Source: Candidatus Sulfotelmatobacter sp. (GTDB lineage Bacteria > Acidobacteriota > Terriglobia > Terriglobales > Acidobacteriaceae). Taken from it: 64,000 nucleotides of DNA. The notes under the pieces were generated by a model, which was given only the letters and a program-made list of their open reading frames with translations, did not search any database and was not told the DNA's origin. Shown in pieces: positions 48,005-54,943 of the stretch (position 1 is the stretch's first letter; every line of letters begins with the position of its first letter). The position numbers were made by a program, and so were the translations under genes. The stretch lies in assembly GCA_036513255.1 (NCBI GenBank), contig DATBZH010000037.1, positions 15,542 to 79,541 of the forward strand, written 5' to 3'.

Positions 48005-48532
48005 ATGAAGCGGATAGCAATCGTGGTGGCGGGATTTCTGCTTTGCGCAGCCGCGGCACTGGCCCAGATGGAAGCCCCCAAGCCGGGTCCGGAGCTCAAG
48101 AAACTCGACATGTTTACTGGTTCTTGGACTCTGGATGGCGACATGAAGCCGGGTGCGATGGGCCCTGGCGGCAAGACCACCGAGGATCAAAAGTGCTCGT
48201 GGATGGAGGGCGGCTTCTACCTGATCTGCCATTTCGACTACAAAACCTCCATGGGAAACGGCGTGGGCCTCGCGGTGATGGGATATTCCACCGAAGACAA
48301 AACTTACACCTACCGCGAGTTCAATAGCCAGGGCGAATTCGACGACTCCAAGGGTACGCTCGATGGCGATAACTGGAGTTGGACGAACGATATGAAGATG
48401 GGCGCCATTACCATGAAAGGCAAGTACACGATGAAGATTCTTTCTCCCACGTCCTACAACTTCGCCTATGAGGTATCGCAGGACGGCACAAAGTGGACGC
48501 CGGTGATGGACGGCAAGGCGACGAAGAAGTAG
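48005..48532 (+). CDS. secreted DUF1579 family protein
   Basis: AGGAGA lies 7 nt upstream of the ATG at 48005. PKPGPELKKLDMFTGSWTLDGDMKPG is the DUF1579 N-terminal signature. Confidence 0.65.
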   Translation: MKRIAIVVAGFLLCAAAALAQMEAPKPGPELKKLDMFTGSWTLDGDMKPGAMGPGGKTTEDQKCSWMEGGFYLICHFDYKTSMGNGVGLAVMGYSTEDKTYTYREFNSQGEFDDSKGTLDGDNWSWTNDMKMGAITMKGKYTMKILSPTSYNFAYEVSQDGTKWTPVMDGKATKK

Positions 48533-48620
48533 GCCGATTCAAGCAGCCAACTGAACCGCCATCGTCCCCTGAATTTACCGGCCCACGCACCCGCCTAGTA
48601 ATCGCGGCCGGGTCGCGAGA

Positions 48621-49313
48621 CTATTTTGCTCCACGCGCGAGAGCGCCCAGATTTCCCGATTGCGCATTGCTGACGGCCGCTCCGTGAAGTTCGCCTTCGA
48701 TAATCTTCGTGTTCGGAATCGTCTCGTAGGCGTAGCCGGTAAGGATGCTGGGCCCGTGCAGATCATTTATGCTCAACCGCGCCCAGCCATAATGGGTCTG
48801 CCCATTGATCGTGAACCTCAGGCCAAGATACCGGTTCGTGGAATGCGCCCACGGTCCATTCGACCACGAGTAAGGACCGTAGGCTCCGGCAGCGATCATA
48901 ACGTTGCCGTAGCTCGGCGTTCCGTCCCCGGTAAGAAATTTCTCGCCCGGCCCAACGGGAACCCCAAAAAATCCTGCCGCCACTTCAGACGCAATCGCCC
49001 CGCCCGGCCGAAAGCCATTCCCGGCGGCCAGGGGATTCAGGACGATACAGTTGGAATGTGACGACCCACATTGACGCCTAAGAACTTCAAAATCAGGGAT
49101 GCCGTCATTGTTAAGATCGATCGTGACCTTGCCGGTATCCTGGAACGAGACGTTCGCCGGAGTGTAGACAACTTCGCCCTCAGCAACTTTCGGCGCAGCC
49201 AACATGCCGATACCGGCAGCGCTGGCCACGGCCACGTAGGCAGCCAGGCGCCGGTCGAGTTTCGCGTTGATGGGTGATGGCGTGCGACGGGAAACGACTT
49301 TAGGCTGAGTCAT
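48621..49313 (-). CDS. secreted hypothetical protein
   Basis: 230 aa. It has an N-terminal RR-containing leader and hydrophobic segment, and a Gly-rich beta-type sequence with HYGWARLS. No family name could be assigned. Confidence 0.5.
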   Translation of the reverse strand: MTQPKVVSRRTPSPINAKLDRRLAAYVAVASAAGIGMLAAPKVAEGEVVYTPANVSFQDTGKVTIDLNNDGIPDFEVLRRQCGSSHSNCIVLNPLAAGNGFRPGGAIASEVAAGFFGVPVGPGEKFLTGDGTPSYGNVMIAAGAYGPYSWSNGPWAHSTNRYLGLRFTINGQTHYGWARLSINDLHGPSILTGYAYETIPNTKIIEGELHGAAVSNAQSGNLGALARGAK

Positions 49314-49442
49314 TTTTTAATTCCTCGCTCAAGGTTCGATAACTGCAGGGCCGAGTGGGAGTTGCGTGCGCCGAGTCCCACTGAAAGCGAAGAGAATTGT
49401 GTCACCTGCGGAAAAGCGCGTCAATCGCCCTTTTGGGGGGTC

Positions 49443-49450
49443 ATTTTTCG
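49443..49450. repeat. target-site duplication, left copy (ATTTTTCG)
   Basis: An identical octamer lies at 52203-52210, immediately outside the two terminal inverted repeats. Confidence 0.8.
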
Positions 49451-49473
49451 GGTAATAATATACTTGACTGACT
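49451..49473. repeat. terminal inverted repeat, left
   Basis: GGTAATAATATACTTGACTGACT is the exact reverse complement of 52180-52202. Confidence 0.9.
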
Positions 49474-49538
49474 GGAGATGATAATGGAAACTGAAAAGGC
49501 CGTGACAGGGCAGGCTGAGGACCGCGAAGAGCGGATTC

Positions 49539-49826
49539 TTAATTTGATTTACCGGGCGGGAGAGGGTCTGTTAAAAGGGCTTCAAACCCCGCTAGTTTTC
49601 CCGCCTCCAGAAGGTTCGCCCGCATTTGAGCATACGCTTCGCGAGATCGTCTCTGACGTTCAGGATCGGCTTGTGCATCGTCCGAAATCCGCTTTATCTG
49701 TTGCGGAGTAAACCCAGCCTTGAACAGAGTTTCGCCGAATGCGTCTCTGTCTATCCACATGCGCTCTAACTGATCGGCGATCTTGCTTAGGAGAACAGCA
49801 ACGGCCTGTAGCGAAGGCGACGACAT
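49539..49826 (-). CDS. cargo gene 3: small helical hypothetical protein
   Basis: 95 aa from MSSPSLQAVAVLLSKIADQLERMW. The start lies 11 nt after the stop of the 2-TM gene. A +strand ORF (49484-49711) overlaps it and cannot be excluded. Confidence 0.45.
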   Translation of the reverse strand: MSSPSLQAVAVLLSKIADQLERMWIDRDAFGETLFKAGFTPQQIKRISDDAQADPERQRRSREAYAQMRANLLEAGKLAGFEALLTDPLPPGKSN

Positions 49827-49837
49827 AGCGCCGCGAA

Positions 49838-50050
49838 TTATACGCCGTTGCGGAGCGCGGAAAACAATCTCCACGCGACAAAAGCAAATAGAAGCCACAA
49901 AAAACCTACAAACAGATCGAAGCCTGTAGCTTGGTTATTGACGGGAGAAATGAAACCCAAGGTACCGTGGAGCACGGTTGGTAGCCACAATATAAGCACA
50001 AGCAAAAATCCAGCAATGGCTCGGCCTCTACTTTTCGATTCTTTAGGCAT
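49838..50050 (-). CDS. cargo gene 2: small 2-TM membrane protein
   Basis: 70 aa with two hydrophobic helices (AIAGFLLVLILWLPTVL; LFVGFLWLLFAFVAWRLF). The start lies 6 nt after the DUF3800-like stop. Confidence 0.55.
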   Translation of the reverse strand: MPKESKSRGRAIAGFLLVLILWLPTVLHGTLGFISPVNNQATGFDLFVGFLWLLFAFVAWRLFSALRNGV

Positions 50051-50056
50051 AATGGC

Positions 50057-50869
50057 TCAAAGTTCCCCCGCTTTTTCGAGATAATCCAGCATCTCATGCA
50101 CGTTCTTTAATTCTGGTATTTCCCCGTCGTCAGCTTCCTCTTTTTGGCTTGCGAACTGTTCGCATCTCTTTCGAGTCCAGATTGAGCCGAGAGTTCGCAC
50201 ATGGTCTAAATCCTGGAATTGTTCCTTCGGCAAATCTGGGCGGAACGGCTCCTTGCTCATTCGCTCCGCGAATAATCGCCTGATATACCACGATTGGGCA
50301 TCCGCAGCTTGGAGCGGCAGGAATTGCAGGTCATCCTCAAACTTCGGCGAGGGCGCTATAAGGTGCCTGAGTTCCGGCGGCAGCATCTTATGGGTCAGTT
50401 GATACCAGCGCGGAACCTTCGCCGCCAGTCGCGGGTTATTGTCGAAGATAAAGTCCACGGTGTCTTCCGATTTTAGTGCGATCTGATTCCATAGAATCTT
50501 CATCACGATGTCGAAGAGGGCGAGGAAGTACGGATCGTCAAACTCACGGTGGACTTTGCCTTTGATGTGCGCCTTGTAGAGATCAATAGGCACCACGGAA
50601 ACCACGGAGGCGTGAGCGGCCATCCGAATCAGTGAGAAGAATTTCTTGATGCGCTCATTTCGGGCAGTCGCCTTCATTCCGCCGAACTGCTCGCTGCGGG
50701 TCGCCGCTTCGCGCATTTTGAAATATTTGAGCGACGGAGGTTCGTCGAGCAAACCTTGCCAATGGTCGGAAAAATCCTCCCACCAATCTAGGCGGCTAAC
50801 GTAGCCGGATAATACGAAGACGGGCTTCCCGGTGCCACTGTCATCGACAAAGGCTTGGAACGTGGTCAC
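50057..50869 (-). CDS. cargo gene 1: DUF3800-like protein
   Basis: FQAFVDDSGTGKPVFVLSGYV near the N-terminus resembles the DUF3800 D-x-S-G start motif. The GTG at 50869 follows GAGGA. The ORF-track ATG at 51001 would add about 45 aa and overlap the divergent small ORF. Confidence 0.6.
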   Translation of the reverse strand: MTTFQAFVDDSGTGKPVFVLSGYVSRLDWWEDFSDHWQGLLDEPPSLKYFKMREAATRSEQFGGMKATARNERIKKFFSLIRMAAHASVVSVVPIDLYKAHIKGKVHREFDDPYFLALFDIVMKILWNQIALKSEDTVDFIFDNNPRLAAKVPRWYQLTHKMLPPELRHLIAPSPKFEDDLQFLPLQAADAQSWYIRRLFAERMSKEPFRPDLPKEQFQDLDHVRTLGSIWTRKRCEQFASQKEEADDGEIPELKNVHEMLDYLEKAGEL

Positions 50870-50985
50870 CCTGCGCGATCCTCTCTTGTGCTGAGGAAGA
50901 CCAGAAACCAGCGCTCGCAGTCTCTCGCTGGGAGTTTGACTTTCGACGCACACTGCGACTACCCTGCTTTCTAGGTAGCCCCAGA

Positions 50986-51174
50986 GTGAGCCAGAAGCCA
51001 ACGCGCCCGACGCAATCCGCCAAGAATGTCACAGGCGATTTTGGCAAGTTCACGGATTTTATGCGGAAACTTGTAGCCGTTCCGCATTCGGAAATCAAAG
51101 CTAAACTCGACGCCGAAAAACTGGAGAAGAAGCGGAAACGCGCTTCTTCCCGCGCTTCCCACGGTAAGGATTAG
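50986..51174 (+). CDS. small basic hypothetical protein inside the element
   Basis: 62 aa with a Lys-rich C-terminus (KAKLDAEKLEKKRKRASSR). It converges on the transposase stop. Weak call. Confidence 0.35.
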   Translation: MSQKPTRPTQSAKNVTGDFGKFTDFMRKLVAVPHSEIKAKLDAEKLEKKRKRASSRASHGKD

Positions 51175-52154
51175 AACGGCGTTTCACCCACCTTGCCAGT
51201 TACCTCAGCGAAGGTTAACCGCTTCCCTACAATCTGCGATAAGACTAGGCCGAATCGTTCTGCATCGGTCAGTTTGCGTCCGTTTTCATCCTTGCGGTTA
51301 TTGTAGCGGAACATTTGCTCATCCAAGTAACGCGAGAGATGGAACGGCTCTACAGCAACGTAGGTTCCATTCAATCCACGCTTGAGCAGGCTCCAGAAGT
51401 TCTCCAGTCCGTTTGTGTGGACTCGCCCGCGAACGTATTCCTTGGTGTGGTTCACAATCTCATGCACGTAGTTTTTCTGGCCTAGAGTCCGGTACGCTCC
51501 AGCTTCATCGGTGTAGACGTTGGAATCTTCCGCCACATGCTTGAGCACTTGGGCCTGTAGTGTGGCGCGGGAAGTGTTCGGCACAATGGCAGTCCGCACC
51601 TTACGCTGTTCGCGGTCAAGGAAACCCATCACGATAGTCTTGCTGGCGTTCGGGTCGCCGCCTTCCTTGGTCATCTTGACTCGCTTCCGCATGTGCATAT
51701 TTTTCATCTTCCCGCCGATGTATGCCTCATCGACTTCGACTTCGCTGTTCTCGCCGCCGCCGAACTTCTGGAAAGAGCCTGTCTGCATTGCGAGTCTGAT
51801 TCGGTGCATCATGAACCAAGCGGACTTCTGAGTTACGCCCAGAGCGCGGTGAATCTCGTAAGACGAAATCCCATTTCGGCAGCTTGCCAGCAACCAAGTA
51901 GCAGGAAGCCATTTCTCCAGCGGGATCGGCGAGTCCTCAAACACGGTGCCAATCTTGAGTGAGAACTTTTGCTTGGGGTGCTTTTCGTAGCAGCGATAGA
52001 GCCGCGCTTTCTCAAGGTAGGTTACCTTTTCGGATTCGCAGTAAGGGCAGCGAACTTTGCCATCTGCCCAGCGCACGGCGATCATGAATTGACGGCAGTT
52101 CTCATACACCGCAAAGAACTTAATGGCGTCTTGGAGTGTCTGTGGGCCTTTCAT
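51171..52154 (-). CDS. IS1595 family (ISXO2-like) DDE transposase
   Basis: 327 aa. The N-terminal zinc ribbon is CPYCESEKVTYLEKARLYRC. The HTH region is GISSYEIHRALGVTQKSAWFMMHRIR. The catalytic candidates are VEVDEAYIGG, VYTDEAGAY and NGLENFWSLLKR. Confidence 0.9.
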   Translation of the reverse strand: MKGPQTLQDAIKFFAVYENCRQFMIAVRWADGKVRCPYCESEKVTYLEKARLYRCYEKHPKQKFSLKIGTVFEDSPIPLEKWLPATWLLASCRNGISSYEIHRALGVTQKSAWFMMHRIRLAMQTGSFQKFGGGENSEVEVDEAYIGGKMKNMHMRKRVKMTKEGGDPNASKTIVMGFLDREQRKVRTAIVPNTSRATLQAQVLKHVAEDSNVYTDEAGAYRTLGQKNYVHEIVNHTKEYVRGRVHTNGLENFWSLLKRGLNGTYVAVEPFHLSRYLDEQMFRYNNRKDENGRKLTDAERFGLVLSQIVGKRLTFAEVTGKVGETPF

Positions 52155-52160
52155 GCACCC

Positions 52161-52189
52161 ACATTAGCAAAATATCGTTAGTCAGTCAA
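52161..52189 (-). promoter_or_regulatory. candidate transposase promoter partly inside the right inverted repeat
   Basis: On the minus strand: TTGACT (52189-52184), a 17-nt spacer, then TAATGT (52166-52161). Only 6 nt separate the -10 from the A of the transposase ATG, which suggests a leaderless or near-leaderless mRNA. Confidence 0.45.
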
Positions 52190-52202
52190 GTATATTATTA
52201 CC
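52180..52202. repeat. terminal inverted repeat, right
   Basis: AGTCAGTCAAGTATATTATTACC is the exact reverse complement of 49451-49473. Confidence 0.9.
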
Positions 52203-52210
52203 ATTTTTCG
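52203..52210. repeat. target-site duplication, right copy (ATTTTTCG)
   Basis: See 49443-49450. Confidence 0.8.
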
Positions 52211-52381
52211 CGATTGACTGGGAGTTTAGACGTTCCCGGTATTCCATCTCTGGGACGAATAACTCCCGTCGATAAGTTCGAGGCGACGATGCCGTACTCA
52301 CGGTTGCCGCAGGAACTACGGCCATACATTTATAATCTTCCATTCAGCTATCCATCACATTCCTCACGGTAAGGAAATATT

Positions 52382-54943
52382 TTGCTCGATTATCTAGGCG
52401 ATTTAAGACGGACTCACATGTGCGGAGCCTTACGCGCTGCTGATGCTGGCAAGAAAACAGTGCTCATGGGCTGGGTCAACCGCCGCCGTGACCACGGCAA
52501 TCTTCTCTTTATCGACCTCCGTGACCGCACGGGACTGACCCAGGTCGTCATCAATGCCGAGCGCGATGCTGCCATCCACGAAAAAGCCGGAAGTCTGCGC
52601 AACGAATACGTGATTGCCGTAATCGGCACGGTGAAACTGCGCGAGGCGAACACGGTCAACCCGAACATGCCCACTGGTGAAGTGGAACTGGTCGCCGAAG
52701 AGTTGCGTATTCTCAACGAATCCAAACTGCCCCCATTCCTGCCCTCGGATACGGCGCTTACCAACGAGGAGACGCGGCTTAAATATCGCTATATCGATCT
52801 GCGCCGCGACGTGATGCAGTTCAACATCGAGACGCGCCACAAAGTCGCGAAAGCAATCCGCGACTATCTTTCCGCGCAGGGATTCTTCGAAATCGAAACG
52901 CCTTTCATGACGCGCTCTACGCCGGAAGGCGCGCGTGACTATCTCGTGCCCAGCCGCGTTCAGCCTGGCACGTTTTACGCGCTGCCGCAGTCGCCGCAGT
53001 TGTTCAAGCAAATTTTGATGATCTCGGGGTTCGACAAATACTTCCAGATTGTCCGCTGCTTCCGCGACGAAGATTTGCGCGCCGACCGCCAACCCGAATT
53101 CACCCAGATCGATTTGGAAATGACGTATCCGCAGCCCGAACGTGTGTGGGAAGTAGTCGAAGGATTTCTAACGGCGGCCTTCGCCGCCGCCGGCTCTGTG
53201 ATCGAGACACCTTTCCCGCGCATGGATTATGACGAAGCAATCCGCCTTTACGGTATCGACAAGCCGGATCTCCGTCTTTCCGCCTTCACCGACGTGCGCG
53301 AATGTTTTGCTCCGGAAAATTTGCAGCAGTTGGCCGTGAATGCGAACTTGCCGGTGGTGGCCATTCGCATTCCGAAAGTCGGTGAGCTTTCCCGCGCCGA
53401 GCGCGACAGCATCAAGCCGCTGTTCATTTCCAAGGGCGGAGCCAAGATATTCGAAGACTTCAAGCGAATCGAAAAGAATTTCTCCGAAGCCGCCGCGAAA
53501 ATTTCTGCGAAGGTCGGGAGTGAGCCCGGAGATCTGATTGTGATTGTCGCAGGCTCGGCGCAAACCGGCGAACGGACGGCGCTCCCGGCGAATCGCAAAG
53601 TCAGTCCGCAGGAACTCTCAATCTACGCTTCGGCCGGATTGCTGCGCCTTGCTCTGGCACAGAAATATGCCGACAAGCATGGCATGTTCAAAAAGTCGGG
53701 CGACCCGCAAAAAGATTTCCGTTTCGTCTGGGTCACCAACTTCCCCATGTTCGAGTGGGATGAAGGCGAAAAGAGCTGGATGGCCGCTCATCATCCTTTT
53801 ACCTCGCCGCATGAAGAAGACATGACTTTGCTGGAAACGGGAGTTGACTCCGTTAACGACCGGCAATCGTCGCTGAGTGCGGTGCGCGCGCTGGCCTACG
53901 ACGTTGTGCTGAACGGCACGGAGCTCGGTTCAGGCTCCATCCGTATTCACCGCCAGGACGTGCAGAGCCGAATCTTCCGCGCACTGGGCATGACCGACGA
54001 AGAAGCCCGCTCTCGGTTCGGATTTTTTCTGGAAGCGCTGGAATACGGCACGCCTCCACATGGAGGCATCGCGCTGGGGCTGGACCGCATCGTCATGATC
54101 CTGACCGGAGCTGAGAGCCTGCGCGAAGTCATTCCGTTCCCCAAAACAGCTCGCGCCGTAGATTTGATGGTCGATGCGCCTAGCGATATTGGAATTGGCC
54201 AGGGTGATGAGTTAGAACTGCTCTCAGCTTGGCCAAGATTGTCCGAGCGCGAGAGGGCACTGGCAGGGTATTGCCAGAGCCTGTTGAAAATTGTAGACAG
54301 TCTCTTCTTCGATCGCCCCCTTAAATGGGAGACACACTTCCAGCAGGCGATGGCAATAAATCTCACAAAGGCGTACAACGATGCCCATGCTGCTGTGCAG
54401 CTTTCGAAAGCTGGATATGCCTTGCAGGCCGCTGCACTGTGCCGATCTATCGTGGAAGCAGCCGCCAATAGCGAATGGATTGCAGCGGAGCCTGAAGCCC
54501 GGGCGACGGCGTTTCTGAGGTCCGTTGGCCCCGAGGCGAAACGGTTGGCCGGCAAGATTCATCGGTCTGCACAGTCGAGAGAATCCCTCAATGCTTTGGA
54601 AAGAGCAAGCTCTCTCGCGGCAGATGCTGGATGGCCGAAGACAGTTCGGGAGCGTTTTCAGGGTTTAGGGGAGAACGCTGCTACATATGAGCTCGTTTTC
54701 AGTATGTTGTCGCAATTTGTACACCCCACGGCAGCCTCGGTAGCAGCGGTTACCAGATACGACGGCGGCGAACTAAGTTTCCGTATCGGTCCCAACGACG
54801 AATTCGTCGAGCTTGCGTTGGCAATAGTTTTCGACTTCCTGTCGAATGTCGTGCTCACCGCAACCAAAGCCTTCGACCTGCCCCAAGGGGCCGTCCTAGA
54901 TGCTCGGAATGGCTTTCAAAAATTGCAGGCAGCCCTTAAATAA
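52382..54943 (+). CDS. aspS: aspartate--tRNA ligase with an appended non-synthetase C-terminal domain of about 250 aa
   Basis: The start is TTG, after AAGGAAA. Residues 1 to about 602 are a complete bacterial-type AspRS: OB fold, motif 1/2/3 regions (FRDEDLRADRQPEFTQID, GSGSIRIH, GGIALGLDR) and the PFPKT...APS end. The ORF then runs on without a stop for another 251 codons. Confidence 0.9.
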   Translation: MLDYLGDLRRTHMCGALRAADAGKKTVLMGWVNRRRDHGNLLFIDLRDRTGLTQVVINAERDAAIHEKAGSLRNEYVIAVIGTVKLREANTVNPNMPTGEVELVAEELRILNESKLPPFLPSDTALTNEETRLKYRYIDLRRDVMQFNIETRHKVAKAIRDYLSAQGFFEIETPFMTRSTPEGARDYLVPSRVQPGTFYALPQSPQLFKQILMISGFDKYFQIVRCFRDEDLRADRQPEFTQIDLEMTYPQPERVWEVVEGFLTAAFAAAGSVIETPFPRMDYDEAIRLYGIDKPDLRLSAFTDVRECFAPENLQQLAVNANLPVVAIRIPKVGELSRAERDSIKPLFISKGGAKIFEDFKRIEKNFSEAAAKISAKVGSEPGDLIVIVAGSAQTGERTALPANRKVSPQELSIYASAGLLRLALAQKYADKHGMFKKSGDPQKDFRFVWVTNFPMFEWDEGEKSWMAAHHPFTSPHEEDMTLLETGVDSVNDRQSSLSAVRALAYDVVLNGTELGSGSIRIHRQDVQSRIFRALGMTDEEARSRFGFFLEALEYGTPPHGGIALGLDRIVMILTGAESLREVIPFPKTARAVDLMVDAPSDIGIGQGDELELLSAWPRLSERERALAGYCQSLLKIVDSLFFDRPLKWETHFQQAMAINLTKAYNDAHAAVQLSKAGYALQAAALCRSIVEAAANSEWIAAEPEARATAFLRSVGPEAKRLAGKIHRSAQSRESLNALERASSLAADAGWPKTVRERFQGLGENAATYELVFSMLSQFVHPTAASVAAVTRYDGGELSFRIGPNDEFVELALAIVFDFLSNVVLTATKAFDLPQGAVLDARNGFQKLQAALK

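Follow-up and report, generated by a model that had tools for sequence, protein, structure and literature searches.

An intact IS1595-family transporter insertion sequence with DUF3800 cargo in a soil acidobacterium, and the cargo-bearing clade to which it belongs

Transporter insertion sequences (tIS) are passenger-carrying elements that otherwise resemble an insertion sequence (IS), and they were introduced together with the IS1595 family itself, in its founding description (Siguier, Gagnevin & Chandler 2009, cited in PMC3129680), so that passenger carriage is a known property of this family. The DNA analysed here, a window of 64,000 nt (the whole stretch under study) from a Candidatus Sulfotelmatobacter-like soil acidobacterium, contains a 2,752-bp element (49451-52202) with IS-like ends, a single transposase, and unrelated genes, namely one for a DUF3800 protein and the open reading frames (ORFs) ORF70 and ORF95, between its terminal inverted repeats (IRs). 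The best explanation overall, which we hold with considerable confidence, is that this is an intact IS1595 tIS whose cargo is most likely a defence, abortive-infection, or addiction module. The locus adds one more clear-cut member to a known class; a first, sequence-only reading of the same DNA had considered a passenger-carrying copy unusual, a view that neither the founding description of the family nor the presence of cargo in every delimited member of the surrounding clade bears out. The nearest described elements are tIS of what we take to be the ISNwi1 type, which share with the window element a single zinc-ribbon DDE transposase, short IRs beginning GG..AT.AT, an 8-bp target duplication, passengers located downstream of the transposase within the IRs, and the DDE-K and E-x3-R motifs; the clade of the window element differs from what is known of them in having a second backbone gene, here called C0, no bare members, and a fast-turnover, defence-like cargo slot. 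ISNha5, an IS1595 tIS with transcription-regulator passengers, is alike in family and in the tIS concept, but elements of its type are 3.4 to 7.9 kb long and have different ends and a DDER/K motif, whereas the window element is 2.75 kb long, with GGTAATAAT ends and a DUF3800 nuclease cargo.

The perfect 23-bp IRs and the 8-bp duplication reported by the sequence-only reading were both confirmed. The IR GGTAATAATATACTTGACTGACT is matched at the opposite end by its exact reverse complement (23 of 23 positions); with up to three mismatches allowed, the two element ends are its only occurrences in the window, and 100 dinucleotide-preserving shuffles gave an expected number of chance matches of 0. 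The octamer ATTTTTCG directly adjoins both IRs (Table 1), and the GC content of the element (about 0.49 to 0.56) is slightly below that of its flanks (about 0.57 to 0.59). An uninterrupted site in related strains, which had been proposed as something to look for, was found twice through metagenome orthologues of the neighboring 230-aa gene, with both flanks aligned. In one relative (L091), flanks 85% identical to those in the window are joined directly without the 2,752 bp, and the junction, which reads ...GTCAATCGCCCTTTTGGAGGGTATTTTTCGCGATTGAG..., holds ATTTTTCG once; in a second (L127), flanks 87 to 93% identical are also joined directly, and the element is absent. A search of metagenome contigs for an exact match to the predicted empty site GGGGGTCATTTTTCGCGATTGAC was negative. 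Because the flanks in L091 and L127 are joined without the 2,752 bp, the whole unit, including its cargo, was inserted by transposition: the element entered as one unit and duplicated the 8-bp target ATTTTTCG.

The same evidence bears on a simpler explanation, in which an ordinary 1.2-kb IS lies beside resident genes and the distal repeat is due to chance, or in which the structure is a mis-assembly. The identical transposase occurs on four public contigs, always with the same neighbors, so that a single genomic site is known for the exact element; beyond this, nothing was found in favor of such an explanation. The genes for the transposase, DUF3800, and C0 each occur only once in the window. 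The two empty sites, however, lack exactly the 2,752 bp and exclude both a short IS with a chance distal repeat and an assembly artefact; the IRs match at 23 of 23 positions, with 0 matches expected by chance; the duplication lies at the outer ends; and the same architecture, with no internal copy of the IR, recurs in 55 independent insertions. We therefore regard the probability of this explanation as virtually negligible. That cargo and transposase move together is also seen in a sister element of 2,452 bp that carries DUF3800 and is present in two 100% identical copies in one metagenome-assembled genome (MAG; CAWCRQ01), at L021 4953-7404 and L022 4953-7404; the two occupy separate sites, each with its own duplication (CATAACGA and CAAATTTG), which is direct evidence that a cargo-bearing copy transposed recently. 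Together with the empty sites, this supports the earlier suggestion of a recent and possibly still mobile insertion.

Table 1. Features of the element and its target duplication (positions in the 64,000-nt window)
Feature	Position	Strand	Basis or remark
Target-site duplication, left copy ATTTTTCG	49443..49450	.	Identical octamer at 52203-52210; once in empty-site relative L091
Terminal IR distal to transposase, GGTAATAATATACTTGACTGACT	49451..49473	+	23/23 complementary to 52180-52202
Cargo gene 3, ORF95, 95-aa all-helical protein	49539..49826	-	Inside 119-aa ORF 49539-49898
Cargo ORF 2 (ORF70), 70 aa, two hydrophobic membrane-helix-like stretches	49838..50050	-	Gene status uncertain
Cargo gene 1, DUF3800, predicted RNase H-like fold	50057..50953	-	Annotated start 50869 (270 aa); likely start GTG 50953 or TTG 51001
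C0, 62-aa basic protein, two predicted helices	50986..51174	+	Antisense to transposase; in 53/55 elements
Terminator-like 11-bp hairpin just past transposase stop, inside C0 3' coding region	51124..51151	-	Consensus scan only
IS1595-family DDE transposase, 327 aa, apparently intact	51171..52154	-	Pfam, NCBIfam, residue conservation
Terminal IR proximal to transposase start	52180..52202	-	Exact reverse complement of 49451-49473
Target-site duplication, right copy ATTTTTCG	52203..52210	.	Identical octamer at 49443-49450

The assignment of the 327-aa protein to the IS1595 transposases, made earlier from its zinc ribbon and candidate D, D, and E residues, is borne out by matches to PF12762 (DDE_Tnp_IS1595; 4.3e-43, profile positions 5 to 153 of 153), PF12760 (Zn_ribbon_IS1595; 2.6e-7, 30.9 bits against a cut-off of 25.4), and NCBIfam NF033547 (transpos_IS1595; 188.6 bits against a cut-off of 75). 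The transposase has all of the residues that at least 98% of 120 homologues share, namely C36, C39, C55, and H59 of the zinc ribbon and D142, D216, E251, K258, E279, and R283, on which grounds it looks intact; D142, D216, and E251 are, judging by their positions, the presumed catalytic residues. K258 follows E251 by seven residues, as in the D, D, E/N/H and K/R pattern of the family, and the short IRs and 8-bp duplications that go with this family were found in the window and, with exact duplications, in all 55 elements. Homologues of the transposase in the databases number more than 8000; among plasmid-borne IS1595 transposases, even the best matches do not exceed 42% identity and are labelled only with the family name. 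The ends read GGTAATAAT, and the transposase has both E251-K258 and E279-x3-R283; a DDEK + ER4 signature with ends ggnnatTAT is what we take to be the mark of the ISNwi1 subgroup, so that the element probably belongs to an ISNwi1-like DDEK + ER4 subgroup. From what is generally known of DDE enzymes, the transposase would bind the two GGTAATAATATAC... ends through its zinc ribbon, cut with D142, D216, and E251, and insert the cut ends at target sites cleaved with an 8-bp stagger, with a loose preference for CWAATTWG, while the cargo operon (DUF3800, the 70-aa membrane ORF, and the 95-aa protein) would not be needed for movement.

The sister elements place this locus in a clade with a distinct organization. 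A scan of one genome per GTDB species yielded 80 loci with transposases 52 to 80% identical, nearly all in MAGs of Terriglobia/Acidobacteriota, and elements were delimited where an exact 8-bp duplication coincided with at least 14 of 22 IR matches; the resulting 55 elements, which include the window element and two loci found through DUF3800, measure 2,082 to 5,099 bp. Their ends are conserved (GGyAATAATATACTTGAC...), and their target duplications share a loose CWAATTWG consensus. None of the 55 is a bare IS of about 1.2 kb, and under relaxed criteria the remaining loci gave about 10 more elements, all candidates being larger than 2.2 kb and none bare. Sister elements are always homologous in nucleotide sequence from their first position up to about position 1190 to 1250 and then again only in the last 25 to 63 nt, whatever separates the two; because the homology breaks and resumes in this way, the alignments delineate an architecture of a conserved module (IR, transposase, and C0), a variable cargo slot, and a distal IR. 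No IR remnant, repeat, or attC-like repeat was found at the cargo boundaries. A model in which an ancestral short IS captured cargo by read-through predicts an internal copy of the IR after C0; none was found. Among the sister loci, two elements (L074 and L084) have nested IS3 or IS21 insertions in the cargo region, with an IS3-type transposase (411 aa) and IS21 istA/istB-like genes (577 and 251 aa), which bring them to 3.7 and 5.1 kb. A further locus (L174 4001-6156) has DUF3800, then C0, and a convergent transposase frameshifted into two pieces, being a decaying copy of the same element type, and sits among phage-integrase and MerR-type genes.

The small divergent ORF counted by the sequence-only reading among the cargo genes is present, but it is a conserved component of the backbone. 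A profile search found this gene, C0, in 53 of the 55 delimited elements, 60 to 70 aa long and antisense to the transposase in every case. In 40 of the 53 it lies immediately against the stop codon of the transposase gene, and in the window element the stop codons of both genes overlap (TTAG). The alignment is protein-like (GDFxxFxxFMRRLVAVPHSEIKAKLDAEK), and divergent members keep EFxxFxxxMxxLLxVPxxEL. In its own frame C0 has a dN/dS of about 0.14 to 0.20, compared with more than 1.2 in four other frames of the region; the antisense frame with the same wobble phase gives 0.24. These values indicate purifying selection on C0. Nucleotide homology among sister elements continues through C0 whatever the cargo, and we conclude from these comparisons that C0 is a real gene of the element backbone and not part of the cargo; because it belongs to the backbone, the true cargo inside the IRs amounts to about 1.5 kb (49474 to about 50985) and not to the 1.7 kb first estimated. 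The 745 database homologues of C0 are all named "hypothetical", none has a Pfam domain, and the gene is called in many metagenomes. No relatives were found in NCBIfam, PHROG, or PADLOC, a sequence-profile search of the PDB gave chance-level matches only, and the AlphaFold2 model, which has two helices, is of low confidence (pLDDT 61) and too poor for a fold search. Our guess is that C0 most likely assists transposition or cargo expression, as a small regulator or cofactor; we know of no description of a conserved second backbone gene, antisense and with overlapping stops, in the IS1595 family.

The slot next to C0 is occupied in sister elements by unrelated genes in either orientation, and since elements with other cargo have the same ends, the cargo is dispensable for the structure of the element. 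DUF3800 is the cargo in 23 of the 55 elements (20 of 52 in the transposase-anchored sample), oriented with the transposase in 13 and convergent to it in 10. Other cargo includes a RelA_SpoT protein (PADLOC PDC-S33, 4.6e-118), an AAA_15/AAA_21 protein (AbiLi, 7e-39) with a DUF3226 partner, an AIPR protein corresponding to AbiU (PADLOC, 1e-157), GmrSD_N with HNH (Pfam), a SocA/Panacea toxin-antitoxin pair (Pfam SocA_Panacea), an HATPase with a STAS-like DUF4325 protein, ClpP-like proteases (CLP_protease), DUF433, DUF6941, and DUF7689; no metabolic or housekeeping genes were seen as sister cargo. The pairing of the AAA_15/AAA_21 ATPase (AbiLi/PDC-M38A-like) with DUF3226 recurs in two elements (L007 1291-3066 and L009 1199-3101, element coordinates), and the DUF3226 partner there has no PADLOC model. 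It might be argued that such passengers are neutral hitch-hikers, captured by chance and without a selected function, as tIS passengers in general are heterogeneous and many sister cargo ORFs have no family. This is very unlikely in our view: the active-site motifs of DUF3800 are invariant or nearly so in 60 homologues, ORF95 has full-length homologues, and the count of 0 bare elements among the 55 delimited and about 10 relaxed ones suggests that cargo is selected.

Cargo and backbone appear to have separate histories. DUF3800 divergence does not track that of the transposase (Spearman 0.09, p=0.13), and an ancestral DUF3800 cargo co-diverging with the transposase was rejected on this basis. 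Two elements with transposases 89% identical (L006 and L011) have DUF3800 proteins without meaningful similarity, and in two further pairs with transposases 84% identical the DUF3800 proteins share 35% (L015 and L017) or 28% (L027 and L028) identity. The backbone in the window is nearest to that of L005 to L012 (69 to 80% transposase identity), and those of this group that carry DUF3800 (L006 and L012) have proteins 24 to 26% identical to that of the window; the window DUF3800 is 81, 62, and 55% identical to those of L002, L003, and L004, respectively, whose transposases are 55 to 58% identical to that of the window and whose cargo has the opposite orientation. By these comparisons the window element is a chimera of backbone and cargo.

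The DUF3800 protein itself matches PF12686 only marginally (21.5 bits against a cut-off of 21), and most of its homologues carry a precomputed match to this family; NCBI lists the identical protein as [quoted passage not shown]. D9, D10, S11, D143, Q187, and D190 are the invariant or nearly invariant residues in the 60 homologues, so that the protein has both the N-terminal D-D/E-S-G and the C-terminal QxxD motif; acidic N-terminal and QxxD motifs have been described for DUF3800 (PMC7736814). The AlphaFold2 model (pLDDT 93.8, pTM 0.90) retrieved RNase HII, H2, or HIII with each of its top 13 Foldseek matches in the PDB (best match 1eke, E=3.7e-4, probability 1.0; TM 0.42 to 0.50), and the protein is predicted to adopt an RNase H2-like (RNase HII-like) fold, in agreement with the RNase H-like fold reported for DUF3800 (PMC7736814, PMC10910872). 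The DUF3800 effectors of type VII retrons and the accessory TPR-DUF3800/Csx32 proteins of Cas12a2/a3 and Cas13 loci are alike in Pfam family, acidic and QxxD motifs, and RNase H2-like fold; the window protein differs from them in that it stands alone inside an IS, with no reverse transcriptase, TPR, or CRISPR, and the likeness is one of family, motifs, and fold. The peptide ERLRAL(V/G)SGLPxxKRGxRR is encoded immediately before the annotated start (50870-50929, minus strand), and L002, L003, and L173 preserve it, with synonymous nucleotide changes; because of this peptide, the start probably lies upstream, at one of the two codons given in Table 1, and the public 270-aa annotations are probably truncated at the N terminus.

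The two ORFs that follow DUF3800 were described earlier as forming, with it, three tightly spaced, co-oriented ORFs; this arrangement stands, with gaps of 6 nt between the DUF3800 stop and ORF70 and of 11 nt between ORF70 and ORF95, but the third ORF most likely begins at ATG 49826 (95 aa) and not at the GTG of the 119-aa version. A search of 1.84 billion representative proteins found 27 full-length homologues of ORF95 (92 to 99 aa, E down to 1.4e-14) that share an LWIEREA...PPxGKPN pattern; with 27 among so many, ORF95 is accordingly a real but rare gene. It is absent from all sister elements and has no relatives in Pfam, NCBIfam, PADLOC, or PHROG, and a profile search of the PDB gave chance-level matches only. 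ORF70 has no homologues in the fetched loci and no family matches, and one gene caller called an opposite-strand 75-aa ORF (49478-49711) instead; none of the fetched loci has a counterpart to the tail of the element (49474-50056), either in nucleotide or in protein sequence. No match to DUF3800, C0, ORF95, ORF70, or ORF77 came from PADLOC, PHROGs, or NCBIfam. The packed arrangement of the three ORFs raises the question of whether the operon is a toxin-antitoxin or addiction cassette, with DUF3800 as toxin and ORF95 and/or ORF70 as antidote, that only prevents loss of the element and is not antiviral. The three packed ORFs, the SocA/Panacea pair and the RelA/SpoT-type enzyme in sister elements, and the intact predicted catalytic residues of DUF3800 would be consistent with this, yet in most sister elements with DUF3800 it is the sole sizeable cargo and has no conserved partner, and none of the other fetched elements has ORF95 or ORF70; we consider such a cassette distinctly unlikely.

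Taken more broadly, the cargo may be a phage-defence, abortive-infection, or addiction module that would benefit the host or stabilize the element, a role suggested by the sister cargo (AbiU, AbiL-like, PDC-S33, GmrSD-HNH, and Panacea) and by published links of DUF3800 to type VII retrons and to Cas12a2/a3 and Cas13 loci (PMC7736814, PMC10910872, PMC13594972, PMC12669027). For the DUF3800 operon we put the chance of such a role as close to even. DUF3800 is interchangeable with known defence genes, in that the same slot holds AbiU, AbiLi-like, PDC-S33, GmrSD_N-HNH, AIPR, and Panacea genes, and a DUF3800 protein 63% identical to that of the window is encoded 24 nt downstream of a 429-aa AbiJ_NTD3 + Abi_C gene in two loci (L171 1243-3357 and L172 65-2179) with no IS1595 transposase nearby; this AbiJ/Abi_C gene and DUF3800 may form a two-gene defence unit. 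Several points weigh against our overall interpretation. None of six ORFs in the window has a PADLOC match at E<=0.1; more than half of the sister cargo has no recognizable family, so that the term defence-like rests on the annotated minority; ORF70 may not be a gene; only one copy of the exact element is known, so that its current activity is no more than putative; and the ISNwi1 assignment is based on a table of motifs. In addition, the literature covered (PMC7736814, PMC10910872, PMC13594972, PMC12669027) contains no demonstration of a biochemical activity for DUF3800, whatever the system.

The frequency of DUF3800 in the slot suggests another role, in which this RNase H-like nuclease, perhaps with C0, serves the element itself by aiding transposition, retention, or homing, on the model of TnsA for Tn7 or TnpB/IscB for IS200/IS605. 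Such a role would explain the repeated recruitment of DUF3800, which is far more common than any other cargo family (23 of 55) and of which lineages 15 to 35% identical sit in backbones 84 to 89% identical, and DUF3800 also pairs with at least 11 unrelated noncoding RNA motifs and with mobile elements (PMC5737381, PMC13594972). However, movement does not depend on DUF3800, since 32 of the 55 elements have intact ends and exact duplications without it. Genuine abortive-infection genes occupy this slot as well, and close homologues are also found beside AbiJ with no transposase. The Rfam RNA motifs DUF3800-I to XI were absent from the window element and, at gathering thresholds, from 14 sister loci with DUF3800, and Rfam gave no match at all at E<=1 in positions 48500 to 53000. 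We regard an element-serving role as unlikely and retain a defence, abortive-infection, or addiction module as the favored reading of the cargo.

The insertion point is an intergenic palindrome in the divergent region between the 230-aa gene and an aspartyl-tRNA synthetase gene: a 9-bp inverted repeat (GTCAATCGC...GCGATTGAC, at 49421-49429 and 52210-52218) encloses the insertion, and the target lies in its loop. In the empty site this palindrome would give a hairpin or operator-like form with a 21-nt loop, and L091 and L127 retain it in part. Directly before the duplicated octamer stands a GCCC-TTTT-GGGG hairpin (49427-49441) that resembles a terminator. The synthetase ORF (52382-54943, plus strand) comprises 853 aa (841 aa as called) and has an unusual C-terminal fusion of DUF5677 to the synthetase core (PF01336, PF00152, and PF18928); the element lies 172 nt upstream of its start and may influence its promoter.

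Two better-known kinds of mobile system resemble the clade in outline. Tn7-like transposons also combine a conserved transposition module with a variable, defence-rich cargo region (abortive-infection, restriction, and toxin-antitoxin genes), and Benler and colleagues reportedly described Tn7-like and other mobile elements with such cargo in 2021; these transposons, however, range from 10 to more than 100 kb, use several transposition proteins, and are site-specific, whereas members of the window clade are IS-sized, with one transposase and usually one cassette. Integron cassettes are alike in that a conserved platform exchanges unrelated single-gene cassettes at a fixed position, but the window clade has no integrase and no attC-like repeat at the cargo boundaries, and its cargo occurs in both orientations. 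In the literature searched, which did not extend to ISfinder and TnPedia, where part of this may be held, we found no description of the obligatory cargo of this clade, of its conserved antisense small gene, or of a fast-exchanging, defence-like slot dominated by DUF3800. A stronger view would be that the clade is a dedicated one-slot platform, with an invariant transposase, an obligatory C0, and an exchangeable cassette that turns over much faster than this backbone and favors divergent DUF3800 nucleases, and not a collection of IS that acquired passengers now and then; we consider this rather unlikely. If true, C0 and/or DUF3800 may help to exchange cargo or to retain the element, for example, by nucleic-acid-guided homing or by killing of cells that lose it, and IS-sized elements would be among the main carriers of single-gene immune systems in soil bacteria.

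The window locus by itself is a textbook-clean tIS caught together with its empty site, which is useful and not surprising. The wider pattern is that of an abundant transposase family (more than 8000 homologues) in soil Acidobacteriota, in this clade always with cargo, much of it abortive-infection- or restriction-like. IS-like elements of 2 to 3 kb would then be a route for the spread and swapping of single-gene immune systems, DUF3800 above all, and, given the links of DUF3800 to retrons, Cas12, and Cas13, the clade offers a compact natural setting for working out its role.

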